From Dictyostelium discoideum (Eukaryota): DNA of 64,000 bases. Made by a program: the position numbers and the translations under genes. The notes under the pieces are model-generated. The model did not search any database, was not told where the DNA came from, and worked only from the letters and a program-made list of their open reading frames with translations. Below, in pieces: positions 7,494-42,762 of the stretch. Position 1 is the stretch's first letter, and the number at the start of each line of letters is the position of its first letter. The stretch is from contig CM000151.3 in assembly GCA_000004695.1 (NCBI GenBank), forward strand, positions 1,216,001 through 1,280,000. The letters run 5' to 3'.

Positions 7494-10400
7494 ATGTCAA
7501 CACAACAAGCATTAGCTCAGGCTAATGAACATGCTTTAAGCCAAGCAAATGGTAATGTTATTTAAATAAAATAAAATAAAAAATTATTTATTTATACTAA
7601 TTTTTCTTTTTTTTAAATATATATATATATATAGATTTAATTAAAGTTGGATCAAAATTAAGAGCATTAAGTGTCTTAAGAGATTTATTAAGTGATCGTA
7701 GTCAATGGCATTCAAGTTTAGAACAAATTATGTCATTATACGTTTCATTATGTGCTGAACAATTAGATTATCAATCATTAAGAGATGGTATTCATCATTT
7801 CAAAGTTTCAATCATGTCACAAAAGGAATTCTCAATTGTACCATTAGAAAATATCTTTAAAGAAATCATTACACCAATTGAACAAAAAGTAGACGAATTA
7901 AAAGAGAAAATTGAAAAAGAAAATCAAGAGAATCCATTAGTTGAACAAAATGAAATCTCACTCATTGATCCACAACAAACTCTCTTATTCTCTTATATGA
8001 AATATTTATTTGAAGCTTATAAAGCAATGATTGAAGTACTCACTCGTCAAAATACTAAATTTGAACATACTAAATTTGATCATTCTAAATTTGATTCAAC
8101 TTTACTTGTAAGTATTTTTTTATTTTAAAAATAACAAATATTTATTTATATATTAATTTTTATATTTATTTTTATTTTTTTTAAAAAGAAAATTTCAACT
8201 CAAGCATTAAATTATTGTTCAAAATATCAAAGAAAACCAGATTTTATGGTATTAACAGAATTATTTAGATCAAGTATTGAACAATTATTTAAAGTACCAT
8301 CATTGGATACAGTGAATACTCATATTGAAATTCGTTTCCATCAATTGACCGTTGCAATTTCATTGGGATTATATTTGATTGCTTACAAGTCAATTGAAGA
8401 TATTAATATTATGTTATTCTCATTGTTAGTTAAACCAAAGCCAGTAGTTTTAGCAACATACTATCAAAAGTTGGCTCAAGTCTATTGGATTACCAATGCT
8501 CATTTATTACATGCCTACGCATTATATAAACATTATGTTTACAATAAGAATTATAATATGAATTTCACACAAGCCGATTCTCAATTATACTCTTCAGTAT
8601 TATTGGTTGCTGCATTATCATCACCAATTCAAGAGGTTAATCAAAATCAATCATTATTACAATTTGATTCACAATCACAAAGAGCTATGGGATTGGCATC
8701 ATTGTTGTCACTCCAATCCATTCCAAAACGTGAAACTTTCCTCGTTGACGTTCGTAAGGTTACCAATGAAGTTTATCCAGAGTTGGCCGATCTCGCTTCA
8801 ATCTTTGAGAAGAAAACATCACCATTGATGTTTGCCAAGCTTTTAGAGCCAAAGATTAAATTCATCGAAGGTCACGCACAACTCTCTCAATACTTAAAAC
8901 CATTCCTTCGTGTAGTTTTCACAAAGATCGCTCTTCAAGTTAGCAAAGTCTACGAAGTTATCAAGATTGAAGAATTCATTAAATTGGTACCATTCTATAC
9001 AAAGACTCAAATTGAACTCTACCTTTTGGAATCAATAAAGAGAAAGTTAATCGGTGCTAGAATCGATCATAAGAATGGTGTAATTCGTTTCGGTCACTAC
9101 GACTTTGACTCTGCCAAAATCTCTGATCAATTATCAAACTTGGCCACTGGTGTTGGTAAAGCTTTGAATATGATTGAACCAGAAAAGAAACAACAACAAC
9201 ATGATAAACTCAAGAAAGAGGTCTACGTCAAGATCATCAATTCACTCCAAGATGAACATCGTCGTATTCTCGCTCGTAAGGAAATCATTGAAAAGAAGAA
9301 AATCTACATGGAACAACAAGATCGTATCAAGAAACAAAAAGAACATGAAGAACTTCAAAAGAAAATCCAAGAGAAAGTCGCTCGTGATCAACAACGTCTC
9401 AAAGAGGATATGGAACGTCGTGAAAAAGAACAAGCCGAAGAGGAATCACAACAAAATCAACTCGATCAAACCATCAATGCCATCGATAAAGCCAAGGTTG
9501 AAATGAAAGCCAAGATCGCTAAAATCGCCAAACAATTGTACATTCTCGAACGTGCCTACCGTGAAGAGGAATTACCAGTCGTTGAAAGCCTCCAAAAAAC
9601 TAAAGCCGTCGAAGATAAGCAATACTTTGAATCAACTCAAGCCGAATTCCTTAAACTCCATCGTGAAGTTCATGACCGTAATGTCACCGAAAAAGCTCGT
9701 CTCAACAGAATCGTACCAGAATATCAAAAATTCACTCAAGCCGTCATCGAAGAGAGAAAGAAACAATTACCAGCCCTTCAAAAGGAGCAAGAAAAGAGAT
9801 TCCAAGAGTTCCTCATTCAACAAGAACAAGATGTCCAAGAGAGAAAGGCAAAGAGAGAGAAAGCTCGTATCGCCGCTGCCCAAGAAAAAGCTAGAAAGGA
9901 AGAACAAGAAAGAGAAAGACTCGAACAAGAACATTTGGAACAAGAACGTTTGGAAGAAGAGAGAAAGAATGCTCCATACGTTCCACCATCTTCAAGAAGA
10001 ACTTTCAGAGACGACGATGATGAACGTGAAGAAAGTGGTAGATGGGGTGGTAGACGTGGTGGTGATGATTTCGGTAGATCCAAAGCTGATGAAGGTGATC
10101 GTTGGGGTAGACGTGAAGATGCTCCACCACCAAGACGTGACGAAGGTGGTGATCGTTGGGGTAGACGTGAAGATGCTCCACCACCAAGACGTGATGAAGG
10201 TGGTGACAGATGGGGTAAACGTGAAGATGCTCCACCACCAAGACGTGACGAAGGTGGTTGGGGTAGACGTGATGATGCTCCACCACCAAGACGTGACGAA
10301 GGTGGCGATAGATGGGGTAGACGTGATGATGCTCCACCAAGACGTGATGATGCTCCACCACCAAGACGTGATGATGCTCCACCACCAAGACGTGATGAAG

Positions 10401-10750
10401 GTGGTGATCGTTGGGGTAGACGTGATGATGCTCCACCAAGAAGAGATGGAGGTGGTAGTGGTGGTTTCGGTGGTAGACGTGATGATGCCCCACCAAGACG
10501 TGACGAAGGTGGTGATCGTTGGGGTAGACGTGAAGATGCTCCACCACCAAGACGTGACGAAGGTGGTGATCGTTGGGGTAGACGTGATGATGCTCCACCA
10601 AGAAGAGACGGTGGTGGTGGTAGTGGTTTTGGTAGAAATCAAGGAGCCCAAGGTGATCAAAACGATAGCTGGAGATCCGATAACAAAAAAGAAGAAAACA
10701 AAAAAGATGCTGATGGTTGGCAAACAGTTGGTGCCAAAAAGAGATATTAA
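7494..10750 (+). CDS. eif3A: Eukaryotic translation initiation factor 3 subunit A; 3 exons: join(7494..7551,7635..8107,8189..10750)
   Basis: PCI-domain region matches human EIF3A: LFSLLVKPKPVVLATYYQKLAQVYWITNAHLLHAYALYKHY ~ [55 protein letters not shown] ~ TRVLLATLSIPI; NSLQDEHRRILARKEIIEKKK ~ NSRKEHQRILARRQTIEERKE. It has a long Glu/Arg/Lys coiled-coil and a C-terminal Arg/Asp/Pro repeat region. The C-terminus ...DADGWQTVGAKKRY matches ...DEDGWTTVRR. Donors are GTAATG at 7552 and GTAAGT at 8108; acceptors are ATAG at 7631-34 and AAAAAG at 8183-88. Confidence 0.9.
10080..10615 (+). repeat. Coding tandem repeat, about 10 copies of a 54-bp unit encoding RDDAPPPRRDEGGDRWGR (some 36-bp variants)
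   Basis: Near-identical DNA units gatgctccaccaccaagacgtgacgaaggtggtgatcgttggggtagacgtgaa recur in frame in the eif3A C-terminus. They are analogous to the DDDRGPRRG decapeptide repeats of metazoan eIF3a. Confidence 0.85.
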
Positions 10751-11098
10751 ACTCTTTATTCCACTCTTTTTTTAATCATTGTTTTTTAATTGTATATCAT
10801 TACTTATTATCTACATCTTTTAAAAAAAAAAAATCATTAAAATAAAAAAATAAATAAAAAAAAAAACTTATAAAAAAAAAAAAAATAGAACAAAACAATT
10901 AAAATCATAAAAATAAGTTAATGTTTTATTTGAGATTGTTGAAAGGATCGATTTCCAATCATTTAATAATTAGTCAAATATTTGACTATAGAACTATGAT
11001 TACTAAATAAAAAAGACATTAATTTAATTAATTTAAGCTTTCAAATAATTAATATGAATTTACCATATGGTAAATTTTGTGGGAAAGGTTAATACCAC

Positions 11099-11160
11099 CA
11101 CATGTGGTTATTCTTCATATTTTTTTTTTTTTTTCCAACACATGTGGTTATTCTTCATAT
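11099..11160. repeat. Direct duplication: two copies of CACATGTGGTTATTCTTCATAT 40 bp apart; each copy starts with the perfect palindrome CACATGTG
   Basis: Read at 11099-11120 and 11139-11160, separated by poly-T. This lies 350 bp downstream of the eif3A stop and about 480 bp upstream of the FNIP-repeat gene ORF. Confidence 0.8.
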
Positions 11161-11643
11161 TCTTTTTTTTTTTTTTAAACTTATTCTATTTTTAAACACA
11201 CCTAAATATAATAAAAAAGCTATTTTTTTAAATTATTTTTATTATTATTTTTTTATTATTTTAATTAAATTTTTATTATTATTGTATTATTTATTTTGTA
11301 ATTATTAATATTATTTTTTTTATAATTTTTATTATTATATTATTATTTTTTTATTATTATTACTATTCAAAAAGGAAATATTTGGATAAAAATTATTGAA
11401 AATGGTATTGATTTTTTTTTTTTTTTTAATTTTTGATTTTTTAAATATTCTTTTTCCTTTTTTTTTTTTTTTTTTTTTTTTCATTGTTGTAATTTTTTTT
11501 TTAATTTTAAAAATGTTTTTTATTAACACTGCTATTAATAAATTAAAAAAAAAAAGGAAATTAAAAAAAATAAACAGGAATTATTAACAACTGGTTTAAA
11601 TGAAATTTCAAGGGATTCAGTATATCAACCAATAATAAATATA

Positions 11644-11975
11644 TTGAATAAAATTAGTAGTGATAGGAACAATTATAAATCATTCAAAATAAATTATTCC
11701 AAAGAAATTAGAGAGTTATTAGATATAATTAAACCAGCACAAAAATTAATTACAGAATCAACTCAAGTAAGAATAGATTTTATTCAGACAAAAAAGATTG
11801 ACCATGAAATATTTAAACCAATAATCATTAATATTGAAAGGGTTAATGAAATTAATTCTATTATAAAAGATAATGAAGAAAATGGTAGTGGTAAAAATGA
11901 ACAATTACCAACAACAACAACATCTCTAATGGATTATTCTAAAACAACTAAATCTCAATCATCAACATTATCATC

Positions 11976-12013
<38 letters not shown>

Positions 12014-15000
12014 ATTTAATAGTAGAATTAAAAAAACTATTAATAAAATATTCAGAACTTCATCAGATGTATATTAATCAACTTTTTGAAAAAGCAAACA
12101 AACGTGTAACCATTTTATTTGATGAATGTCCATTATTTATAAATGATAGTTTAATATTTAGAGAAATGGATTCATTAACAATGGTATACGATATTATATC
12201 ATATGATAGTCAAGAACATTGTTTCACAAAGAAATCTGAAAGAGGGACTTGCTCTGGTGTAATAATGAATAATGTATACTTTAAAACTGATAATGGCTGT
12301 GGATTACTTAGACCTGCAAAAGAGAATGCTGTATTTGAATTCTATAAAGATCTTTACCCTGAATCTTCAAAAGGTTCATCATTTGTTTCGCCAACTAGCT
12401 TTATGATTATTACTGAAATTCCAATTTTACCGTCATCTCCAATTGAATGTTCAAAAAGAAAAGAATTGATTGAATTTAAAAGTTTATATAAAACAAATCA
12501 TGCTAGATCAGTATACCTTAGAAATCTTGAGTTTGAACGTGATATTCTAAATTCAAGAGTTAGAACTAATGTATCGACCCAGGCTTCACTTTTAGTAAAG
12601 GGTGAACCACTTGATAAACTAATTGAAAAAAATCGTGATAGAATGGAACGATTTGAAGATTCATTAGATAATGAAAGTTTTGGTGCTCATATTTTATCAA
12701 GTTTATTATTGAATACAACAGATTATAAACCAGATAATATTTTCATTGAAAGTACTACAAATAAAATCATTGGTATTGATAATGATGAATGTATGGAATT
12801 TTATGAAATTCAACAAGGTGCAGATGGAAAACAATATGTCCATTTCAAAAATATATTATTTTTACTTAAGAAAAAAATGTCAACCAAAGTGAACCAAAAA
12901 ATTCGGGAACAATATTTGAAGCATCAACCAAATACTTTTATTTTATCTTGGTTATTAAAAATACTTGAAAAAGATAAGAATTATAAGAATTTAGTTGATT
13001 TAGCTTTTCCTGATGATCAATCACTACGTAATCAAACTAACAGTAGTTTAAAATTACCTTTTACATTTAAAAAAGGTTGGATAAATTCAATGTTATCAAG
13101 ATTTAAATTGATTAAAAGTTTATTAAAAATAAATAATTATAAAAATGGTGGGGAAATTGGTGGTGGCGGCGGTGGTGTTGGTGTTAGTAGTGGTAGTGGA
13201 AGTTTTTATGGAATAGTTAGTTATCAAGATTTATTTAAAGAGGTTTTGCCACTTGCATATATTTACTATCAACGATTGGAATCTGAAAGTATTGGAGACC
13301 CAATTAATCAAATTAAAATAGTATATGAAAGAGAATTTTCATTTGGAGATTTACTTTTTAAACATGATATTGAAGCAGAGCCAAATAAACATAAAACAAT
13401 GAAATTTGTTGAAAGTAAAGAAATATCAATTATTGAAACTATTAAAGAATTAATATTAAATTCAGGAGAAAATGATTTTGAATCACCATCTGATTTTATA
13501 AAATGGTTAGAACAAATTCTTATGTTTAAAAATTCTATTGATATTAGTAGTAGTAGTAGTAGTAGTGGTATTGGTGAAATTAAACTTCATGAATCATTTT
13601 ATAAATCAACAAAATCAATAATTGCAAATCTTTTTAAAGGTGAAGCAGATTTTAAATTAATTAATGATTTTATTAATTTTACAAATTTTAATATTAAAGA
13701 ATTATCAGAACCAACAGTATTTTCATCATCAAAAAATGATGATGGGGCTAATGAAATACAACAACCTTTACTTCATTCAACAATTTATTCAAAAAATTTA
13801 AAATTATTTGATCAAATCAAATTTATTATTAATAATTTAAATGTTAATATTGATTTAGTTAATGAAAAAGGTTTAACAGCATTAGATTTATCAGCAGAAT
13901 TAAATAATTTTAAACTTTTTATTTTATTAATTGAATTGGGTGGTGGTAAAGTTTTCAATTCATCAATTATTAGTAAATTTTATAATTCATTAAAAGCAAA
14001 AGAAAAATTAGAGTTTAAACCATATTTACAAGTTTTATTTCATACCAATCCAAATGCAGCATGGTGTATTTCTTTAAATTGTTTATTACCAGAATATAGC
14101 GGATCACAATTGGCTTTAAATAAACATATCAAAACCATTTCAACCGTTGTAAAAGGTAGAAGAAAAATTTCAGAAGAACATTTTTATTCATTGTTTGATA
14201 GATATGGAGAACCATTAAAAACAAATCAGTATGGTTCTAGTGCTGTACCTTCAATTAAAGATGAATATGGTAATTGTATTTACATTAAATTTAATCCACA
14301 ATTTCCAGGCACAGATATTGCAGTTACAAAATTATCAGAGTATTTATTTGGTCACTGTTCACCATGTTGTGAATTAGGTTCAATAGAAGAACTACCAGTT
14401 TTATTGGTTCAAGAGGTATATGGTGAACCATTAATTAATGTTTTAGAGAAAACACCGGAAATTATAGATAAACTTGATCCATTAAATATTTCAAAACAAT
14501 TAATAATGGGAATTTTAACAAATAATGCAGATGGTAATTTAGGTAATTTTATAATTACTTCAACACCTAAAAAACCAATTTCTAAATCAACAAATAATCT
14601 TGAAGAATCATGTGAAAATAAATTTAAAATTTATTCAATTGATAATGAACAATGTTTTATGCCATCAACTTCAAAACAAACAGAATCAGATACTTCACTT
14701 TTAAATAAATTTAAATTACAAGTAGAGACAGCAATTTTATTATTCAACCAAATGAATGACAATGTTCATCAAGAAGTAATTAAACGTATAAAATCATTAG
14801 ATATTAATGAATTTTGCGAAAAATGGTTACATTTTTTAGAGAAACAAAATTCATTATCATTGGTTCATTTTAAAGAATTGGGACAACAATTAAAAAATCA
14901 AAAGAAAACTATTGTCGGAGTAAATTTTATTAATGAAATGATGAAAACTTTTTATACAAAATTAGCAAGACTTCAACATCATTTAACAATTGCAGAAGAA

Positions 15001-17247
15001 AATATTACTCATTTACAATTATTAGAAAAATTAGAACCAATGATTGCAGAAAGAATTAAACCAATTTTAATTAGCTCAGCCAATGAATCAATTATTAAAA
15101 GATATTGGAAATTAAAAAATGGTTGTACACAAACTATTATTGTTAGAAATTCAAGTTATAATTTAGAACTTACTAGATCAAATAATCCTTCAGCATTTTT
15201 AGCACAACCAATTGATAAACTTAACCCACAAGATATTGAAAATCAACTTTGGGAAGGCCATTATGATCCTGAAAAAGCATTGAGAGAATTTAAAGAAATG
15301 AAAATAGAATTTTCAAAAATTAGTCAAATTTTTAATAATATTAATGATGGTGTCATTGATAGCATTTCTGATTTAGATTTAACAGAATTTTTAAAAAAAA
15401 CAAGTTTTGATAATTTAACAAAAGTCCAAAGTAATAAAATATTTGAAACTTTAAAATCAAGATCAATCAATATCATTCATATTAAGAATTGTGAATATTT
15501 AAAATTAAGAATTTTTAAACATTTTAATTTAGAGAAATTAACAGAAATTGATTTATCTGGTTGCACAAAATTGAAATGTATTAGAAATGGTTTAAATACA
15601 ACTTTAACATTGGCATCTCTAAAAATATTAATAGTTAGAAATTGTATAAAATTAATGGATTTAAAATTAAAAGCAGATAATTTAGAAACTTTAATAGCAT
15701 CAGATTGTTTTAAATTAAAAGAATTTGAAGTTAATTCACCAAATTTAAAAATTTTAAATTTAAATTCATCAATTAATAATCCTTTAATTTTCAATTGTTT
15801 AAACAAATATAAGAAATTAACATTTTTAGATATTTCAAAATCAAAGGGAATACCAGTGATTGAATTTGATTTTCAAGAATTAAAATTTTTAGATGCAAAA
15901 TCAATTGCAGGTTGTAATAAAGTAATTTTAGATTTACCAAAAATTGAATTAATAATTTTTGAAGGTTGTAAAGATTTGAGAGAAATTAAGTCAAAATCAA
16001 ATCATCATTTAACATGGAAGGCTTTAAAATCAAATTCAAATAAATTAATCTTTAATGAAAAACAAATTAATTTAAATTTAATTGGTCCAGATTTAAAAGA
16101 GTTACCAATTGGTTGTGAAAGTGAAATCGAATTAATTGATCCAAATCATTTTCAATTATATTATGGTGATGTTGATGAAATGAAAAATAATCAGGAAAAG
16201 AATTATTATAAAATTAAAAGTTTAGTAATTGGAAATATACCAAAAACTGTCAAATCTTTAATATTGCATGATTCATTTTGTCATTTATTATCACCTGGAA
16301 TAATACCTGATAGTGTAAAAACTTTAAATCTTTATGATATTAAAGCTCCATTAGATGTTGGTTCAATACCATCATCAGTAAAGAGTTTAATATTAAATAA
16401 AGGGTTTGGTCGTATACTAACAGAGGGTATCATACCAAATGGTGTTGAAAATTTAGATATATATGATATTAAACTTCAATTAGAGATTAAATCAATACCG
16501 TCATCAGTAATATCATTAAAATTTCATGATGGGTTTAATCATGATTTAAAACCTGGTATCATTCCAAATGGTGTTAGAAATTTACAAATTCAAAATTTAA
16601 AAAAACCATTGGTTATTGGCTCTATTCCTCAGTCTGTTAATAGGTTAACAATTAATCAATCAATACAATTTAAATTAATACCTGATATTATACCATCAAA
16701 TGTTAACTTTCTTTATTTATATGATGTTAAAGAAGAATTACAAATTGGTTCAATTCCTTCAAATGTAAAATCTTTAGCATTAAATTATAAATTTAATTCC
16801 CCATTATTACCAAAAATAATTCCAGATGGTGTGGAAACCTTAGATCTATATAATGTATTACAACCTTTACAGCGCGGTTCAATACCATCATCAGTTGATA
16901 CATTAACTATTCATGATGGATTCAATCAGATTTTAAGGAGATCAATCATTCCAAATAGCGTTAAAACTCTTCATCTACATGACATAAAACAAAATTTACA
17001 AATTGGTTCAATACCATCTTCAGTAAAAAAATTGATACTTCATGATAAATTCAATCAGAATTTATCTGTTGGTATTATTCCAGAAGGTGTTGAATATTTA
17101 TCTTTACATAATATCATACAAAATTTAGAAATTGGTTCAATACCAAAATCTATGTTACAAATTACATTTGAAAAAAGTTTTGATAAATCAGTACCTCCTT
17201 TTGTAATTCCTAGTGGCACTAAACTTTTATATGCAAATAAAAATTAA
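11644..17247 (+). CDS. FNIP-repeat / LRR protein with two divergent kinase-like modules, 1867-aa ORF; the true 5' end is unresolved (the ORF tool start is TTG, and a micro-exon may lie upstream)
   Basis: The C-terminal third holds at least 17 tandem ~22-aa FNIP repeats (e.g. DGFNHDLKPGIIPNGVRNL, DKFNQNLSVGIIPEGVEYL, YKFNSPLLPKIIPDGVETL). Before them is a Cys-containing LRR-like block (LSGCTKLKCIRNG..., IVRNCIKLMDLKL..., IASDCFKLKEFEV...). One ankyrin-like repeat reads KGLTALDLSAELNNFKLFILLIELGG. Two segments share HxD-K/N..N plus IDN[DE]xC motifs: LLNTTDYKPDNIFIE...IIGIDNDECMEF and ILTNNADGNLGNFII...YSIDNEQCFMP. Stop TAA at 17245-17247. Confidence 0.75.
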
Positions 17248-17761: not shown

Positions 17762-20700
17762 ATGAATAAAATATTATACTATTTATTATTATTTATATTC
17801 TTCTTTGTACATTACCTTAATTCACAACCACAACAACCACAAGAACAACAACGAGAGCAACAACCACGACTACAACAATCACAAGATATCAATAATGATA
17901 TAATAAATATTTATGTAAATTCAAATTATACCAATAGCAATGGTAATGGTACCATAGTAAATCCATTTCAAAATTTATGTGTGCTTAATAATTTATTACC
18001 AAGATTAAACAATTTAAACAATACAATAATAATAATAAATATAGGATATGGTTTTTATGATATTAAAAAATGCACTTTTTCTCAATTAATAATAAAAAAT
18101 TATAACAATATAACTTTTATACCATATGATTTTAATAATGAGAATAATAATAATAATAATAATAATAACAATAAAATAGTTTTAAAAAATACATATTTAA
18201 TTATTACAAATTCAACAATTAATTTTCAAAATGAAATAATATTAAATTTAAATGGTTTTTCATTTTCTTTTAGTCACATAGAGTTTAATGATGGAGTTGA
18301 AATTAATTTTCAAGGAACTTTACCAACGATAAATTATTGTAATTTAAAATTTAAAAATTCAAAATTTAATTTTTTATACTCCACATCTCATATGGAATGT
18401 ACAAATAGTTTAATTGAATTCATAGGATCAACATTGGGAGGTGGGGAAATTATATTTTATTCAGGTTTAGAACCAATAAAAGATAGTGGTATTATATTTA
18501 GAGATAATAGTTTTTCAATAAAGAATAATTTGAAAATGGCAGTTTATAAATTACATGTTGAAAATTCAGTATGGATAGATTCAACAGTATCAAGTTTTTC
18601 AAGTATTCATTTCAATGAAACTAATATTTTTAAATCACAAAATCAAAATGATAATCAACAACAACAACAAATAGAAGAAGATAATCCAATGTTTTCATTA
18701 TCAAATCAAGATTTATTTAAGATTAATGTAATTTTAAATATAGTGAATTGTAAAATCAATTATATTGATCCACATCAAGGTGAGACAAGTTATTCAATGA
18801 TTTCAATTTTTTCAAGTTTTCAACCAGTTATTCAAATGATTTCAATAAGTAATGTGGAAATCTCAGGATTTAATAGTAAACAACCATTAATTTTTCAAAA
18901 AGGTGAATCAAGTTCATTAGAAATTAATAATGTTCTCATAGAGAATTGTACATCATTACAATTTATAGATTCACAATCTGGTGATATAAAATTAAGTCAA
19001 ATGAAATTTAGAAATAATAAATTTAAAATATTAATTGAAATTAGAAATTCAAATCTTTATTTCTATGAAACTGGAATACTTTGTAGTGATAATAATGATA
19101 TAGGTTTAATGGTATCTTTTGATACTACAACCTATTTGTTAACAGAGGATGTAGAAACAGCAATAACAACAACAACATATGGTCGTAATAATATTTTATT
19201 AGAGAATTTAGTTTTTCAATGTTCAGGTTTATTTAATTTCATTAAATCTGATATTAGAATTGAAAGTGTTAGAATGGAATCATCATTTAAAAATTCATTA
19301 ATTTCACTTTATAATGATTGTTCAGCACAAATATCCAATAGTCAATTACTTTCAAATTCATTTGAATCAAAGTCATTATTCTATATAAATTCAAGTCAAT
19401 TATTTATATTTAATAGTGACTTTAGTGGTAGTACTGCATCATTTGTTTCAGCATGGAAAGATTCAATAATTTATTTAGAATCTACAAGTTGGAATAAATT
19501 ATTCTCAAAGGGTAAACCAAATTTTATTATCGAGGAATCCTATTTACATATTACAAATTCAACATTTGATGGTGTTCAATCATCTAGTGCACTAATTGAA
19601 AGTTATAAATCATATATTGATATTAGTAATACAACGATTAATGCATTTGGTAGTAAATCAATTCTTTATAGTGAATCTTCTCAATATGTAATTCTTAGTG
19701 ATTTGGTTTTAAATGGTTGTTTCTCTCAAGATCAATTATTTTATATATATCAAGCTCAAACAGTTGATATAAAAAGATGTATTTTTAATAATAATCGTGG
19801 ATATGGTTATAATTTATTTAAATTTATAAATTGTACCACTGTGAATATAGAGTTTACAAAGTTTATTGGAAACTCATTCTCACCATTAATTCAAAGTTAT
19901 CAATCAAGTTTAATTTTACAATCGATTACATTGATTGGTAATTCAGGTTCGTTCATTAATAGTATTGGTGATGTCATTGTGAAAGTTTATAATTTAACTT
20001 ATACAGATAATTTAATAACCTATGACTATTTATTTGTTTCTGAAAATACTCGATCGATTATTCTAAATTCCATAACTATCAATAATAATTATTTCAATAA
20101 TTTTTTATTCATTTTTGATAATGTATCAAATTTATTTTTTAATGATTTCACTTTATCAAATAATCTATTAAGTGAAATCGATAAAAACGATACACCAATG
20201 ATACTTTTTCAAAATTGTCAAATCACTTCATTCATTAATTTCAATATTATTAATAATTCAATTTCAAAATCATTATTCAAGTCTACAAATTCTAGATTGG
20301 TTTTTGCTCGATTAATATTTTCATCAAATCAAATCACTGGTATTGATAATAGTTTCATTGATTCTTTAACTTCAAATATTATAATTACAAATTCAATAAT
20401 ATCAAATAATAATGGTAATTGTAAAAGTTTAATAAATTTAAATGCTTGTTCTTTAACTATAGATTCAACTAATTTCCAAGGAAATTATTTCATTCAAAAT
20501 GGTGATGGATCAATTATTTCTTATAAATCTATTATCAATGAAAAGATTGGTAATAACTTTTTTCAAATTTCAAATTCAATATTTTATAATAATTTTGGGA
20601 AATTTGGTGCTGTTTTTTCATTTTATAATTTCTCACTTTTAAATGATACAAAATATCCAATCATTAATAATAATAGTATATTCAATAATAATAGTTTTAT

Positions 20701-22792
20701 TTCAAATACTGCCACTCAACAAGGTGGTGTTTTCTATACAAAAAATTTTTTATTTAATTTAAATTCAACTTTATTTAATTCAAATATTTTTTTAAATAAT
20801 ATTGCATTTTGTGGTATAAATTTTTCTTCAGGTTAGTATTATATAATTTATATAATAAATTTATATTTTTTAAGATTTACTAATAATTATTAATTATTTT
20901 TAGAATTTAATAAAGTAATATTTAAAAATAAAAATGTAATTAATGGTTTAAATTCATTAATTGAATATAACCTTTTAGATTATTATGGTAATATTTTTAC
21001 ACCATTATCAACTACTGTTAATATTAGTATAACAAGAGTATCAAATATGAAATCAATTATAATACCAAGTGTTATTATTGTTGGAGTTGGAAATTTTAAA
21101 TATCAATTTATTGGTGATTTTGGTGAAAATTATATTATTGAAACTATTAATGGTGATAATGATGATGATAATGATAATGATGATGATAAATCAAATATTT
21201 CATTTAAAGAAACAATTATGGTTTTAGGTTGTTTACAATATCAATATTTTAATGAAACCAATGATAGTTGTAATTATTGTTCAGTTGATTTCTCTTACAG
21301 TCCTTCATTAAAAAAATGTTATCAATGTGATCCTGATAAAATATCTTGTTTAACTTCATCAGTTGTTACAAATGATGGTTATTATTTAGTGAATCAAGAT
21401 GTTTCCATGGTTGAAGAATGTCCAGTTGCAATGTGTCTATCAAATAATACTTGTCTTTCAAATAATAGTTTTGGTAATTTATGTTTTAGTTGTAAAGATC
21501 AATTTGGAAATGTAATACAGTCAAAAAATGGTATAAGATGTTGTTCAAGTTTTAAACCAAATTTAATCATACCAATATTAATAATAGTTTATTTAATTTT
21601 TGGTTTATCATTATCATTATTAAAATATAATCTACTTGAAAAACCAATTGGTCAAATTATAATATTCCTTCAAATTAATTCTGTGGTATTCTTTTCATAT
21701 AGTGGTGTTTACATTTTACCATTATTCAGAATGTCAATTGACCTATTTGATGGAGTTTGCCTATTTAAAGGTTTAAATGCAAATTATAAATTTTTCATTT
21801 CACTTTTTATTATTACCTCATTATTTTTCATTGGTTCAACTGATATTACATTAAATCTATTAGAATTTACTTTAAAAAGAATTTTCAAATTTTCAAATTA
21901 TCCAAACTTTTTAAATAAAATTTTAATTGGTAAAGTTAATCAAGGTAAAATTTATAAATGGAAATCAATTTGGTCATTATATCAAATATTTATAATACCA
22001 TTATTATTTAATTCAATTTGTTTCTTAATTTCAAAAACTATAAATAATATTGATTATTTATCAATTGATTTTTCAATTAATTATAAATCAAAAATTAATC
22101 AACTTTGTATTACTCTATCAATTATAATTATTTTAATGATATCATTAATTTCTATAATTTCAATTATATCATTTTTAATTTTCAAATTTAAAACTTTAAA
22201 AAGAATTTTAAAAATTAATAATAGTAATAATAACTCAAATGATAATAATAATAATAATCAAAATTCAAATAATAGAAAATTAAAATCATATTTCATTTCA
22301 AAATTAAATTTAATATTTTTAAATTTTTATAGATTACAATTACAATTAAATTATAAAAGAAATTTTAAATATTGGGATAATTTAATATTATTAAAATCAT
22401 TATTATTAGTGATATTATCAATTTCTTTTATTTTTAATTTTAGTCATTTTATGACTTTTGTTATAACAATTCAAATCATATATACAACAATTCACTTTCT
22501 TTTTAATCCAATTAAAAAAGAACTATTACCAATAACAAATTTTAATAATTTAACAAATCTATTACAATTAATTATTTTCATCATTTCAGATTCAACATTG
22601 CTTAAATCAGTTTCATTATTTAATCAAGGAAAAATTTTAACAAGTTTATCATTTTTATTTTCTTTATTTATTTGTTTTAGTTATTATTATTATTATTACT
22701 ATTATTATTTTAAAAGAAATAATTTTTCAACAACAACAACAACATCAACAAATAATTTTGATTTTAAATCAAATCAATTAAAAAAATTATAA
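17762..22792 (+). CDS. Large secreted beta-helix-like (Pmp-like repeat) protein with Cys-rich module and C-terminal 7-9 TM domain, copy A; join(17762..20831,20904..22792)
   Basis: Signal peptide MNKILYYLLLFIFFFVHYLNS. About 1000 aa rich in N/S/I/F with recurring FxxN (FNNNSF, FIGNSF, FYNNFG, FDGVQ) and a QQGGVFYT motif near the end, as in Pmp repeats or a parallel beta-helix. Donor GTTAGT follows ...AFCGINFSS and acceptor TTTTAG is at 20898-20903. Exon 2 encodes the Cys-rich block CNYCSVDFSYSPSLKKCYQCDPDKISC...CPVAMCLSNNTCLSNNSFGNLCFSCKDQFG...RCC, followed by at least 7 hydrophobic helices. Paralogous to copy B (48510..53657). Confidence 0.7.
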
Positions 22793-39800: not shown

Positions 39801-40439
39801 CTTTATCTGGAACGATGTTTTGCAAAGCAACATATCCCAATACACCTTTTTTAATTTTATTAATTCATTATCTTCCTTTTTTCCCATATTATTTAAATTT
39901 GATTATCTATTTAATGGGGAATTAGAATGAGATATTTCTTTTTTTATTTTTATCAATTCTAACTTTTTTAAAAAAAAAAAAATAAAAAATAAAAAAAAAT
40001 AAAAAAAGTAAATTTGTTAAAGAAAGAAACTTGTTTTATTTTATTTTTATTTATTTTAAAAAAATAAAATTAAGACTCTTAATTATTAAAATTAATATTA
40101 ATTTATTTATTTATTTACTTATTTATTTTTTTTTTATAATTTCTAACTGATGTAAAAATTAAATTGAATATTAAAAACCATTTACTATCATATTTCCATA
40201 TTTTATCCCTTTTAGGTTTGGCAATAAATAAAAGAAAAAAAAAAAAAATGAAAATCCATTTTTATTTTTTTTTTTTTTTATTTTTTTTTTTTTGATATAT
40301 TTTTTAACAAAATAAAAAAAAAAAAAAAAAAAAACTATTGAGGTTGTATTTTAAAAAATAACACATTTTATTTATTAATTTTTTTTTTTTTTTTTGTGTT
40401 ATTATTAATTATTTTTTATTTTGTTATTATTTTTTTTTT

Positions 40440-40620
<181 letters not shown>

Positions 40621-40623
40621 AAA

Positions 40624-40723
40624 NNNNNNNNNNNNNNNNNNNNNNNNNNNNNNNNNNNNNNNNNNNNNNNNNNNNNNNNNNNNNNNNNNNNNNNNNNNNN
40701 NNNNNNNNNNNNNNNNNNNNNNN
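40624..40723. other. Assembly gap (100 N)
   Basis: A run of exactly 100 n characters. Confidence 0.99.
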
Positions 40724-40811
40724 AACTCTCTCTTTTTTATATAGTGTAAACAATTTTTCAAAAAGTATATTAAAATAAAATAAAATAATATATTTCATAT
40801 TATAGCGGTTA

Positions 40812-40879
<68 letters not shown>

Positions 40880-41159
40880 AAAAAAAAAAAAAAATGAAAA
40901 CTAATATCTCTTAATTTGAAAAAAAAAAATATATATATACACAGAATCGAGATACTTGCATCATCAACCAAACATTTTCAATCAATATGTAGAAGACTAT
41001 ATAGAATATTTGCACATGCATTTTATCATCACAGAGAAGCTTATAATGAATATGAAGTAATATTATTTTATTTTATTTTTTTTTATTTTATTATTATTTT
41101 ATTTTATTTTATTTTATTTTTGTTTCATTACTAACAATCAAAAATAATTATTTTTTTGG

Positions 41160-41205
<46 letters not shown>

Positions 41206-41401
41206 ACAATAACCAGAGTAAAACTTTATTACATAAAAGATTTGTAAAATTTTGTTTAAAGAATAGTTTATTACCAAAATCGGCAATCATTATAAAAGAA
41301 AATTAATTCAAAAAAATAAACCCTTTGTAAACTTAAATCATTAAAATAATAGCGCAATTTTAAATTTATATAACCATGTATCAATAAATATAAATAAATA
41401 A

Positions 41402-41435
<34 letters not shown>

Positions 41436-41581
41436 AATTATTTGTAAAAAAAAAAAAATCATTTGCCTAACCTTTTTTTAAAAATAAATGTATGTTTTTA
41501 TAACTTAATATTTTATTTTATTATTATATTATTTTTTTTTATTTTTTTTTTTTTTAAAATTAATAAAATGGATTCGAGTAT

Positions 41582-41622
<41 letters not shown>

Positions 41623-42762
41623 TAATTTAAATCTTAACAAATTCAAAATAAAAAAATAATTATGATTAAAAATAAAATGGGGAACTTGGTTTAAATTACA
41701 ATTTAAAAATTATAATAAGTTGAGAAAATAAAAAAAATAATTTGATTAAAAAAAAAAACAAAAACAATAAAATAAAACAAAACAAGAAATAATTTGATTA
41801 AAAAAAAAACAAAACAAAAACAAAAACAAAAACAAAATAAAATAAAAACAAAATAAAAAAAAAATAAAATAAAATAAAATAAAATAAAATAAAAAAAGAA
41901 AAAAATACATATGTATATACAATGTATATATCATATTTTATTATATTAAAAAAACAAAACAAAAACAAAATAAAATAAAATAAAATAAAAAAAGAAAAAA
42001 ATATATTGTATATCTCATTTTTTTAACAAATATGTTGCCTCTATCTCATTGTTTTGAAAATTTCGCGCAAACTAAAAAAAAAAAAAACCAAATTTTTTAT
42101 TTTTTTTTACATTGGAATGTAAAAGCTGTGTCAAAATTTTACATTTCCAGTGATAATTTTTTTTTTTTGGCATCACAATTTTTTTTTTACGGCGTCTCGG
42201 GCTGAAAAAAAAAAAAAAACATTTCAGAAGGGTCTTTTTCAATTTTCATAATACACGTATAATGTAATATTTCAATCTCTCATTTTTTTTTTTTCTAATT
42301 AAAAAAAAAAAAAAAAAAAAAAAGTAAAAAATAAATAAAAAAGAGAGAATAAGGTGAAGAAAAAAAAAGATTAATGGCAGCCACGAATATAATAAATAAA
42401 TAACAGTGATAAAAAAAATAATAAAAAAAAAATAATAAAAAAAAAAAACCGAGTTGAGAAACAGAAATGGTTTAAGTTAGCAAAAAAAAAAAAAAAAAAA
42501 AAAAACATATAGTAAAAAAAAAAAAAATAATAATAAAAAACAGACTCGACAGAAATAATAGAGAGAACACTTACAATTGGATAGGACAAAATATTTAAGA
42601 AAAAAAAAAATAGTATTATATGACTGATAGAGGAAAAAATACAAATAAAGAAACAACGAAACAGATCTATTATTTCCAACACAATCACCAACGTTGCTGC
42701 TGGGTTTTTTTTATTTTTTTTATCACTCTTTTCCATCAATTTTTTACTTTTTTTTATTTTTC

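Follow-up and report, generated by a model that had tools for sequence, protein, structure and literature searches.

Organisation of the gene and its product

The stretch of Dictyostelium discoideum DNA analysed here, 64,000 nucleotides (nt) of contig CM000151.3 (hereafter the window, in whose positions all coordinates are given), carries on its forward strand a gene whose listed open reading frame (ORF), 11644..17247 (+), encodes 1867 amino acids (aa). The product would be a large multidomain nuclear-encoded protein with a cassette of two kinases as its core, followed by a leucine-rich-repeat (LRR) block and then by 16 FNIP repeats. Neither a signal peptide nor a membrane-spanning stretch caught the eye in it, though no search aimed at either was made. 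In a preliminary description of this ORF the protein was read as an atypical kinase or pseudokinase domain, present twice and joined to LRR and FNIP repeats; the duplicated kinase fold stands, and the pseudokinase is disfavoured because a full catalytic set is present.

Kinase module 1 (aa 163-496; 12130..13131, +) and kinase module 2 (aa 820-1150; 14101..15093, +), both modelled with a PI4K type II-like kinase fold, are separated by a linker of about 320 residues (aa 497-819; 13132..14100, +). Within the linker lies an ankyrin-like segment (aa ~707-766; nt 13762-13941), in which the Pfam Ank_2 and Ank_4 matches of the window protein are below threshold (E 0.018-0.17); the corresponding segment of the homologue from Ca. 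Paracaedibacter acanthamoebae (P0024) gives a significant Ank match (E 6.5e-10). Module 2 is followed by a region (aa 1151-1280; 15094..15483, +) that is conserved in the alignment of close homologues and has no Pfam match, and by a cysteine-containing LRR block (aa ~1281-1529; 15484..16230, +). Pfam LRR matches to this block (E 1.2e-4 to 8e-3) remain under the gathering score, and homologues carry a significant LRR_6 downstream of the kinase cassette. The C-terminal array (aa 1532-1867; 16231..17244, +) matches Pfam PF05725 at E 6.8e-67, with 12 overlapping 44-aa matches. Its tandem repeats of about 22 aa follow the consensus FN-x-x-h-x-x-x-IP, which places them in the FNIP/IP22 family, and the count of IP motifs gives 16 units alternating between 21 and 22 aa, not the "at least 17" first reported. 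Structurally, FNIP repeats are counted as a class of LRR (PMC9525666).

Both modules model as kinase folds

AlphaFold2 models were built using as alignments the homologues from an exhaustive search. The models were confident for both module 1 (mean predicted local distance difference test, pLDDT, 93.5; predicted template modelling score, pTM, 0.89) and module 2 (pLDDT 89.2, pTM 0.88). When these models were compared with the PDB by Foldseek, the top matches were all kinases (CtkA, PI4KII alpha, HipA, Chk2 and others), and the closest structural relatives were enzymes with the PI3/PI4-kinase fold. Confident models together with top matches that are all kinases indicate that both segments adopt a kinase fold, of the PI3/PI4-kinase structural class and most like PI4KII; as modelled, the modules show PI4K type II alpha as their closest solved relative. 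The preliminary description had proposed a search for a protein kinase-like (PKL) fold as the check on its assignment, and both segments came through it: the bilobal kinase fold seen by structure comparison and the complete set of catalytic residues place them in the PKL superfamily.

The hhalign alignments with PI4KII alpha give the register of the functional motifs. For module 2, D963, N968 and D1000 are paired with D308, N313 and D346, respectively, and for module 1 the sequence D360-YKPD-N365 falls on D308-RGND-N313 and IDND on IDNG. The structure paper on PI4KII alpha implicates Lys152, Asp346 and D308 in nucleotide and substrate binding (PMC3974213), and the motif pairings of the family fall on residues named there.

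The modules do not qualify as classical eukaryotic protein kinases (HRDxKxxN and DFG), for which a Pfam match to Pkinase or PK_Tyr_Ser-Thr and close structural similarity would be expected; there is no Pkinase match. A weak match to DUF5633 was discarded as chance, since it occurred in 1 of 28 members and had no literature.

The modules are anciently duplicated paralogues

The assignment began from two motif pairs described as lying about 600 aa apart. All four peptides are present, TDYKPDNIFIE at aa 359 (nt 12718-12750) and GIDNDECMEF at aa 377 (nt 12772-12801) in module 1, and NADGNLGNFII at aa 961 (nt 14524-14556) and SIDNEQCFMP at aa 998 (nt 14635-14664) in module 2, and the separation is 602 aa. 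The two module segments match each other by BLASTP (E 2e-6, 28% identity over 192 aa), and neither motif set varies among the four closest homologues, whose overall identity to the window protein ranges from 45 to 94%; the resemblance between the motif pairs is therefore not a chance coincidence. Both sets are also strongly conserved over about 90 family representatives. Conservation of the motifs had been put forward as a second check, and they are indeed kept in orthologues, paralogues and bacterial homologues.

Comparison of the family profiles of modules 1 and 2 by hhalign gave a probability of 100% and E 4.8e-43 over 287 columns, in an alignment that takes in the N-lobe segment "YFK ... 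P-G-x-E-x-AV". Since the profiles match over the whole domain, the duplication must be ancient, older than the radiation of the family. A stacking of modules 1 and 2 made with MAFFT misaligned the N-lobes and was left out of the searches, the register being taken from hhalign. The distance from module 1 to module 2, which lies downstream of it, is 450-500 aa in nearly all family representatives, so that the spacing is conserved as well. One metagenomic protein of 4215 aa (P0025), named 'ankyrin repeat protein', has two complete cassettes and hence four kinase-like modules.

Catalytic residues are kept in both modules

The predicted ATP-binding lysines are Lys214 of module 1, in VYFK (12283..12285, +), and Lys882 of module 2, in IYIKF (14287..14289, +), each invariant in the alignment of its module. 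Motif and hhalign alignment together assign to module 1 the catalytic loop TDYKPDN (D360, K362, N365) and the metal-binding IDND (D379; both within 12718..12801, +), and to module 2 the catalytic loop NADGNLGN (D963, N968) and the metal-binding IDNE (D1000; within 14524..14664, +).

Residue statistics were drawn from 89 module 2 and 95 module 1 sequences. The ATP-binding lysine is found in 87/89 module 2 sequences (K882) and in 67 of the 68 module 1 sequences aligned there (K214). Its predicted partner in module 1, the acidic helix residue Glu227 (in AKENAV), is a glutamate in 65/67; at the equivalent position 891 of module 2 the family has Glu in 82/89 and Asp in 3/89, and the window protein has Asp891 (in PGTD) in place of the family Glu. 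Equally well kept are the catalytic-loop aspartate (D963 in 86/89, D360 in 89/95), the catalytic-loop asparagine (N968 in 85/89, N365 in 87/95) and the metal-binding aspartate (D1000 in 86/89, D379 in 90/95). Both modules could be scored in 61 proteins: the K-D-N-D set of module 2 is complete in 59 of them, and the D-N-D set of module 1 in 54. In the window protein both modules retain the full catalytic set, and by their sequences both look catalytically competent.

A cysteine-rich loop in module 2

Lys882 is followed by a helix, and the loop behind that helix contains the sequence CSPCC (aa 905-909; 14356..14370, +). It lies 23 residues past the lysine, and in PI4KII alpha the sequence CCPCC lies 22 residues past Lys152. 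In that enzyme CCPCC is palmitoylated and belongs to a palmitoylation insertion, of which an amphipathic helix is also a part (PMC3974213). By analogy, CSPCC may be an S-acylated membrane tether, a suggestion that we regard as a lead and not as a finding. Only the closest Dictyostelium relatives have its cysteines (C905 in 13/89 sequences, C909 in 16/89). Counting against the suggestion, the cysteine-rich loop is found neither in module 1 nor in most members of the family, and the module 2 model has a short loop at this place, lacking a counterpart of the amphipathic-helix insertion of PI4KII alpha.

A family shared by Dictyostelium and intracellular bacteria

Homologues were collected by exhaustive HMMER search with the module 2 profile and clustered at 50% identity. 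The exhaustive search was required because a word-indexed one returned four close matches with the protein and three with a 36-sequence profile. The module 2 profile recovered 621 clusters at E <= 1e-3 and 338 at E <= 1e-10, most of the proteins being 1500-2500 aa long with two matched stretches. Kinase 1, a helical/ankyrin linker, kinase 2 and LRR follow one another in a conserved order, for which neither Pfam nor NCBIfam has a model; an NCBIfam search likewise gave no match for the kinase cassette.

The closest protein matches are all from Dictyostelium, the best being 93-94% identical to the window protein. Members occur in D. discoideum AX4 (DDB_G0272122; Q8ST27, "hypothetical"), D. firmibasis, D. 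citrinum and D. dimigraforme, and at least 11 paralogues were confirmed in D. purpureum. Dictyostelium members are annotated as hypothetical, FNIP repeat-containing or ankyrin repeat-containing, and one as "protein kinase domain-containing".

A scan of bacteria, with one genome per species, found 50 loci. The genomes carrying them include Ca. Paracaedibacter symbiosus, a metagenome-assembled genome (MAG) of the Paracaedibacteraceae with at least seven loci, MAGs of Holosporales and other alphaproteobacteria, Chlamydiae, Dependentiae, a Tatlockia MAG and a closed gammaproteobacterial chromosome with six loci. The named bacterial taxa of the family are known to live within protists, whereas for the gammaproteobacterial, alphaproteobacterial and uncultured MAGs such a life is only presumed. 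Between its modules the member from Ca. Paracaedibacter (Odyssella) acanthamoebae has an ankyrin segment that scores as significant, and it has an F-box at its C-terminus; LRR_6, a patatin phospholipase, or WD40 with Sel1 is found in further bacterial members.

Two bacterial settings were looked at more closely. The closed 2.45-Mb chromosome is that of a Gammaproteobacteria MAG (OZ220716.1; loci L022, L026, L029, L030, L033 and L038); four of its six loci fall inside about 120 kb (1.25-1.37 Mb), and in the one that was examined a WD40 propeller stands at the N-terminus, with a Sel1 repeat as well. The other is a 151-kb bacterial contig (ERZ25067783:contig_187; locus L051, 1-9720 and 20230-29832) encoding a member of 3386 aa with Sel1 repeats (P0018), in the company of a RickCE-type deubiquitinase, a 1089-aa patatin protein, ankyrin and tetratricopeptide-repeat proteins, a resolvase and several insertion-sequence transposases. 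Judged by its gene content, this is a typical effector neighbourhood, resembling an effector island.

A tree of the module 2 sequences was made by neighbour joining, with module 1 as root and without support values; in it all Dictyostelium copies form one clade nested in bacterial diversity. The Ca. P. acanthamoebae protein adjoins this clade, and a small bacterial subclade lies inside it. The nested position suggests transfer from bacterium to host; most likely, the sequences suggest, the family entered the genus Dictyostelium horizontally from a Paracaedibacter-like symbiont and then expanded. It tells against this account that the direction of transfer is only inferred, because the tree has no support values and many of its tips are of unknown taxon.

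Other origins and roles were considered and found no real support. The FNIP repeats made an origin of the kinase cassette in giant viruses tempting, and no relative was found in the viral contigs of IMG/VR. An anti-phage defence role was set aside, there being no PADLOC match for the window protein or for the kinase region of one homologue (P0031); another (P0019) had one weak match to a candidate model, PDC-M72A (E 1.1e-6), between its two kinase modules. No description of the kinase-cassette family was found in the searchable literature, and a survey of the Legionella pan-kinome, in which Legionella kinases are compared with the Dictyostelium kinome, makes no mention of PI4K or of tandem domains (PMC9758233).

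The 5' end of the gene and its surroundings

The TTG at 11644 is the mechanical start of the listed ORF and not evidence of the true start. An in-frame TAA at 11539-41 precedes an open frame that begins at 11542, so that the gene ORF spans 11542..17247 (+), with its stop codon at 17245-17247. The first in-frame ATG comes only at 11929 (aa 96), and the 11542-11929 stretch looks coding despite the lack of an earlier one. A one-codon first exon, the ATG at 11402-11404, joined in frame at 11557 across a 152-nt GT..AG intron (11405-11556), would fit the sequence and is a candidate for the 5' end. The annotated start of one homologue (P0001) corresponds to aa 142 only, and the alignment of close homologues begins only at about aa 142-170. 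The N-terminal region (aa 1-162; 11644..12129, +) is of low complexity and poorly conserved, contains a poly-Thr run and has no Pfam family match.

Intergenic positions 11095-11174, about 230 nt upstream of the candidate ATG at 11402 and about 470 nt upstream of the ORF, hold a tandem direct repeat of a 40-nt unit in perfect register, the copies being 95% identical. Each copy contains the palindrome CACATGTG, then GTTATTCTTCATATT and a T-run, and the repeat may be a promoter element.

The kinase-cassette family has a single copy in the window, and the gene, at about 22-25% GC, matches its neighbours in an AT-rich window of about 22% GC. Genes for eIF3a, a Kelch-RhoGAP protein, an SNF2 helicase and Spt6 share the window; with eukaryotic neighbours and host-like GC, the locus is ordinary nuclear DNA. 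The eIF3a-like gene (8246-10750, +), with a PCI domain, ends in about 12 tandem peptide repeats of the type DAPPPRRDEGGDRWGRR, and local GC rises there to about 34% because of these repeats. Downstream, an ORF of 1024 aa at 17762-20836 (+) has a signal-peptide-like N-terminus, an N/S/I-rich repetitive body and no Pfam match, and its product may be a secreted or cell-surface repeat protein. Extreme AT richness (11% GC) marks positions 40001-42000, where there is no long ORF.

Proposed function

We consider it likely, from the models, that the gene encodes two paralogous kinases of the PI3/PI4 class in a cassette with LRR and FNIP repeats, and that it belongs to a family of probable symbiont origin. 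Module 1 would bind ATP-Mg and transfer phosphate through K214, E227, D360, N365 and D379, and module 2 would do so through K882, D891, D963, N968 and D1000. The LRR/FNIP solenoid may select or recruit partners or localise the enzyme, and the substrate could be a phosphoinositide or other membrane lipid, or a protein.

Several observations weigh against this assignment. At three functional positions the window module 2 differs from the consensus of the family (D891 in place of E, N965 in place of K and G967 in place of D). PF00454 (PI3_PI4_kinase) matches module 1 at E 0.006, with 17.0 bits against a cut-off of 27.1. Searches of the sequences of PDB chains with the protein and three family profiles returned no kinase and no PI4K2, so the kinase relationship is revealed by structure comparison only. 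The PI4K2A catalytic domain, whose sequence was checked against PDB 4HND and is identical save for the SSPSS mutation introduced for crystallisation, gives hhalign probabilities of 3.2% and 0.7% with the family profiles (E 0.014 and 0.083), which are not significant. Kinase activity, finally, is a prediction from sequence and models.

Elsewhere PF00454 gave no match on module 2 and 24.2 bits, also under the cut-off, in the scan of whole-protein homologues; it reached E <= 0.01 in 3 of 28 module 1 sequences (best E 1.2e-6), a result stated as E-value and not set against the gathering score. Below threshold as they are, the PF00454 matches count in favour of the fold.

The best-surviving alternative, which we hold to be possible though not favoured, is that both modules are protein kinases, of Ser/Thr or other specificity, to which the LRR/FNIP array presents protein substrates. 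The loop D-x-K-x-D-N of module 1 and of the family is like the D-L-K-x-x-N of Ser/Thr kinases, many protein kinases belong to the same fold class, and it has been speculated in print that FNIP repeats linked to kinases give substrate specificity (PMC9525666). Set against this, the IDN-x-x-AF-P motif agrees with the IDNGLAFP of PI4KII alpha, and in one bacterial member the fusion partner is a patatin phospholipase, which acts on lipids. Because of the motif and this fusion, together with the top structural match, we lean slightly towards a lipid over a protein as substrate, the remaining probability being left to a pseudokinase, other chemistry or a small molecule.

That one or both modules are pseudokinases, serving as scaffold or regulator in the manner of JAK JH2 with JH1 or of plant tandem kinase proteins, appears unlikely. 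A degenerate partner is frequent in tandem kinase arrangements, three family members (P0064, P0076 and P0087) have lost catalytic residues of module 1, and the D891, N965 and G967 substitutions of the window module 2 are unusual; both window modules nevertheless retain the lysine, the helix acid, the catalytic Asp and Asn and the metal-binding Asp. In both modules this set is about 90-97% conserved, and such purifying selection would not be expected at a dead site. The retention of catalytic residues in both modules favours two working active sites over a kinase paired with a pseudokinase.

A kinase fold turned to non-kinase chemistry, such as AMPylation in SelO or glutamylation in SidJ, is often met with in atypical kinases of effector type but is a very improbable explanation here, since the arrangement of Lys, Asp, Asn and Asp is of the phosphotransferase type and the closest relatives are true kinases. 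The likeness to APH or choline-kinase-like enzymes raised in the preliminary description did not hold up, the fold being PI3/PI4-kinase-like, with neither a Pfam APH or Choline_kinase match, even at E <= 10, nor closest structural similarity to them, and small-molecule kinases of the APH, choline-kinase or fructosamine-kinase type can be given hardly any weight, being already disfavoured.

For two paralogous kinases of the PI3/PI4 class, a further role can be imagined by analogy with plant tandem-kinase immune proteins. The cassette could be a signalling module that the host took from a symbiont, multiplied (at least 11 confirmed copies in D. purpureum) and fused to LRR/FNIP sensors as part of an intracellular surveillance or counter-effector system, or the copies could act as decoys or competitors of homologous bacterial effectors that rewrite the phosphoinositides of the host. 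We regard this as a speculative and rather improbable extension.

Comparison with known systems

The closest known enzymes are PI4K2A/B (PDB 4HND, 4PLA). Their Lys152 corresponds to K882 and K214, their D308-x4-N313 (DRGNDN) to DGNLGN and DYKPDN, and their D346 (IDNG) to IDNE and IDND, and the cysteine-rich motifs, CCPCC in PI4KII alpha and CSPCC in module 2, stand at nearly equal distances from the lysine. In contrast, only 15% of residues are identical, neither sequences nor profiles match significantly, the window models do not show the palmitoylation insertion and its amphipathic helix, and the window domain is tandem-duplicated inside an Ank/LRR/FNIP protein of about 1900 aa, its activity being a prediction from sequence. 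The protein is like a PI3/PI4-kinase-fold enzyme, yet it stands outside PI4K type II, to which it has no significant sequence homology, and outside PF00454 at the threshold of that model.

Vps34, class I PI3K, PI4KIII, the PIKKs and Legionella MavQ have structural scores below those of PI4KII, and their helical, FAT and accessory domains are not in the window protein. Actin-fragmin kinase of Physarum (PDB 1CJA) and the atypical protein kinases CotH, HipA and CtkA rank lower as structural matches, share no sequence similarity and have other accessory domains.

The fnk kinases and FNIP/IP22 proteins of Dictyostelium share with the window protein a C-terminal FNIP/IP22 array and the same organism. 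The fnk proteins have a classical protein-kinase domain; the window protein, unlike them, has no Pkinase Pfam match, and its kinases are PI4KII-like and in tandem. It lies outside the fnk group, in which a classical kinase is combined with FNIP repeats.

What is new is an unannotated and highly divergent kinase family with a conserved tandem architecture and a distribution over hosts and endosymbionts. Two apparently active kinase domains in each conserved cassette are an unusual arrangement. As no Pfam or NCBIfam model for the cassette reaches threshold in the window protein or in the scanned members, kinome surveys using those models would miss the family. Dictyostelium serves as a main model for host-bacterium interactions, phagocytosis and phosphoinositide signalling, and the family offers a likely case of gene transfer from bacterium to amoeba followed by expansion.

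The eukaryote-like effector repertoires of amoeba endosymbionts (Ank, LRR, F-box and patatin proteins of Paracaedibacter, Chlamydiae and Legionella) resemble the bacterial members of the family, which are multi-copy and come with F-box, LRR_6 or patatin. They differ in that the window gene is a nuclear gene of the host, and the bacterial members are putative effectors; the bacterial cassette, present in many copies and effector-like in several lineages of obligate intracellular bacteria of protists, Legionellales-like ones among them, would be a concrete candidate for the manipulation of host membranes or signalling by symbionts.

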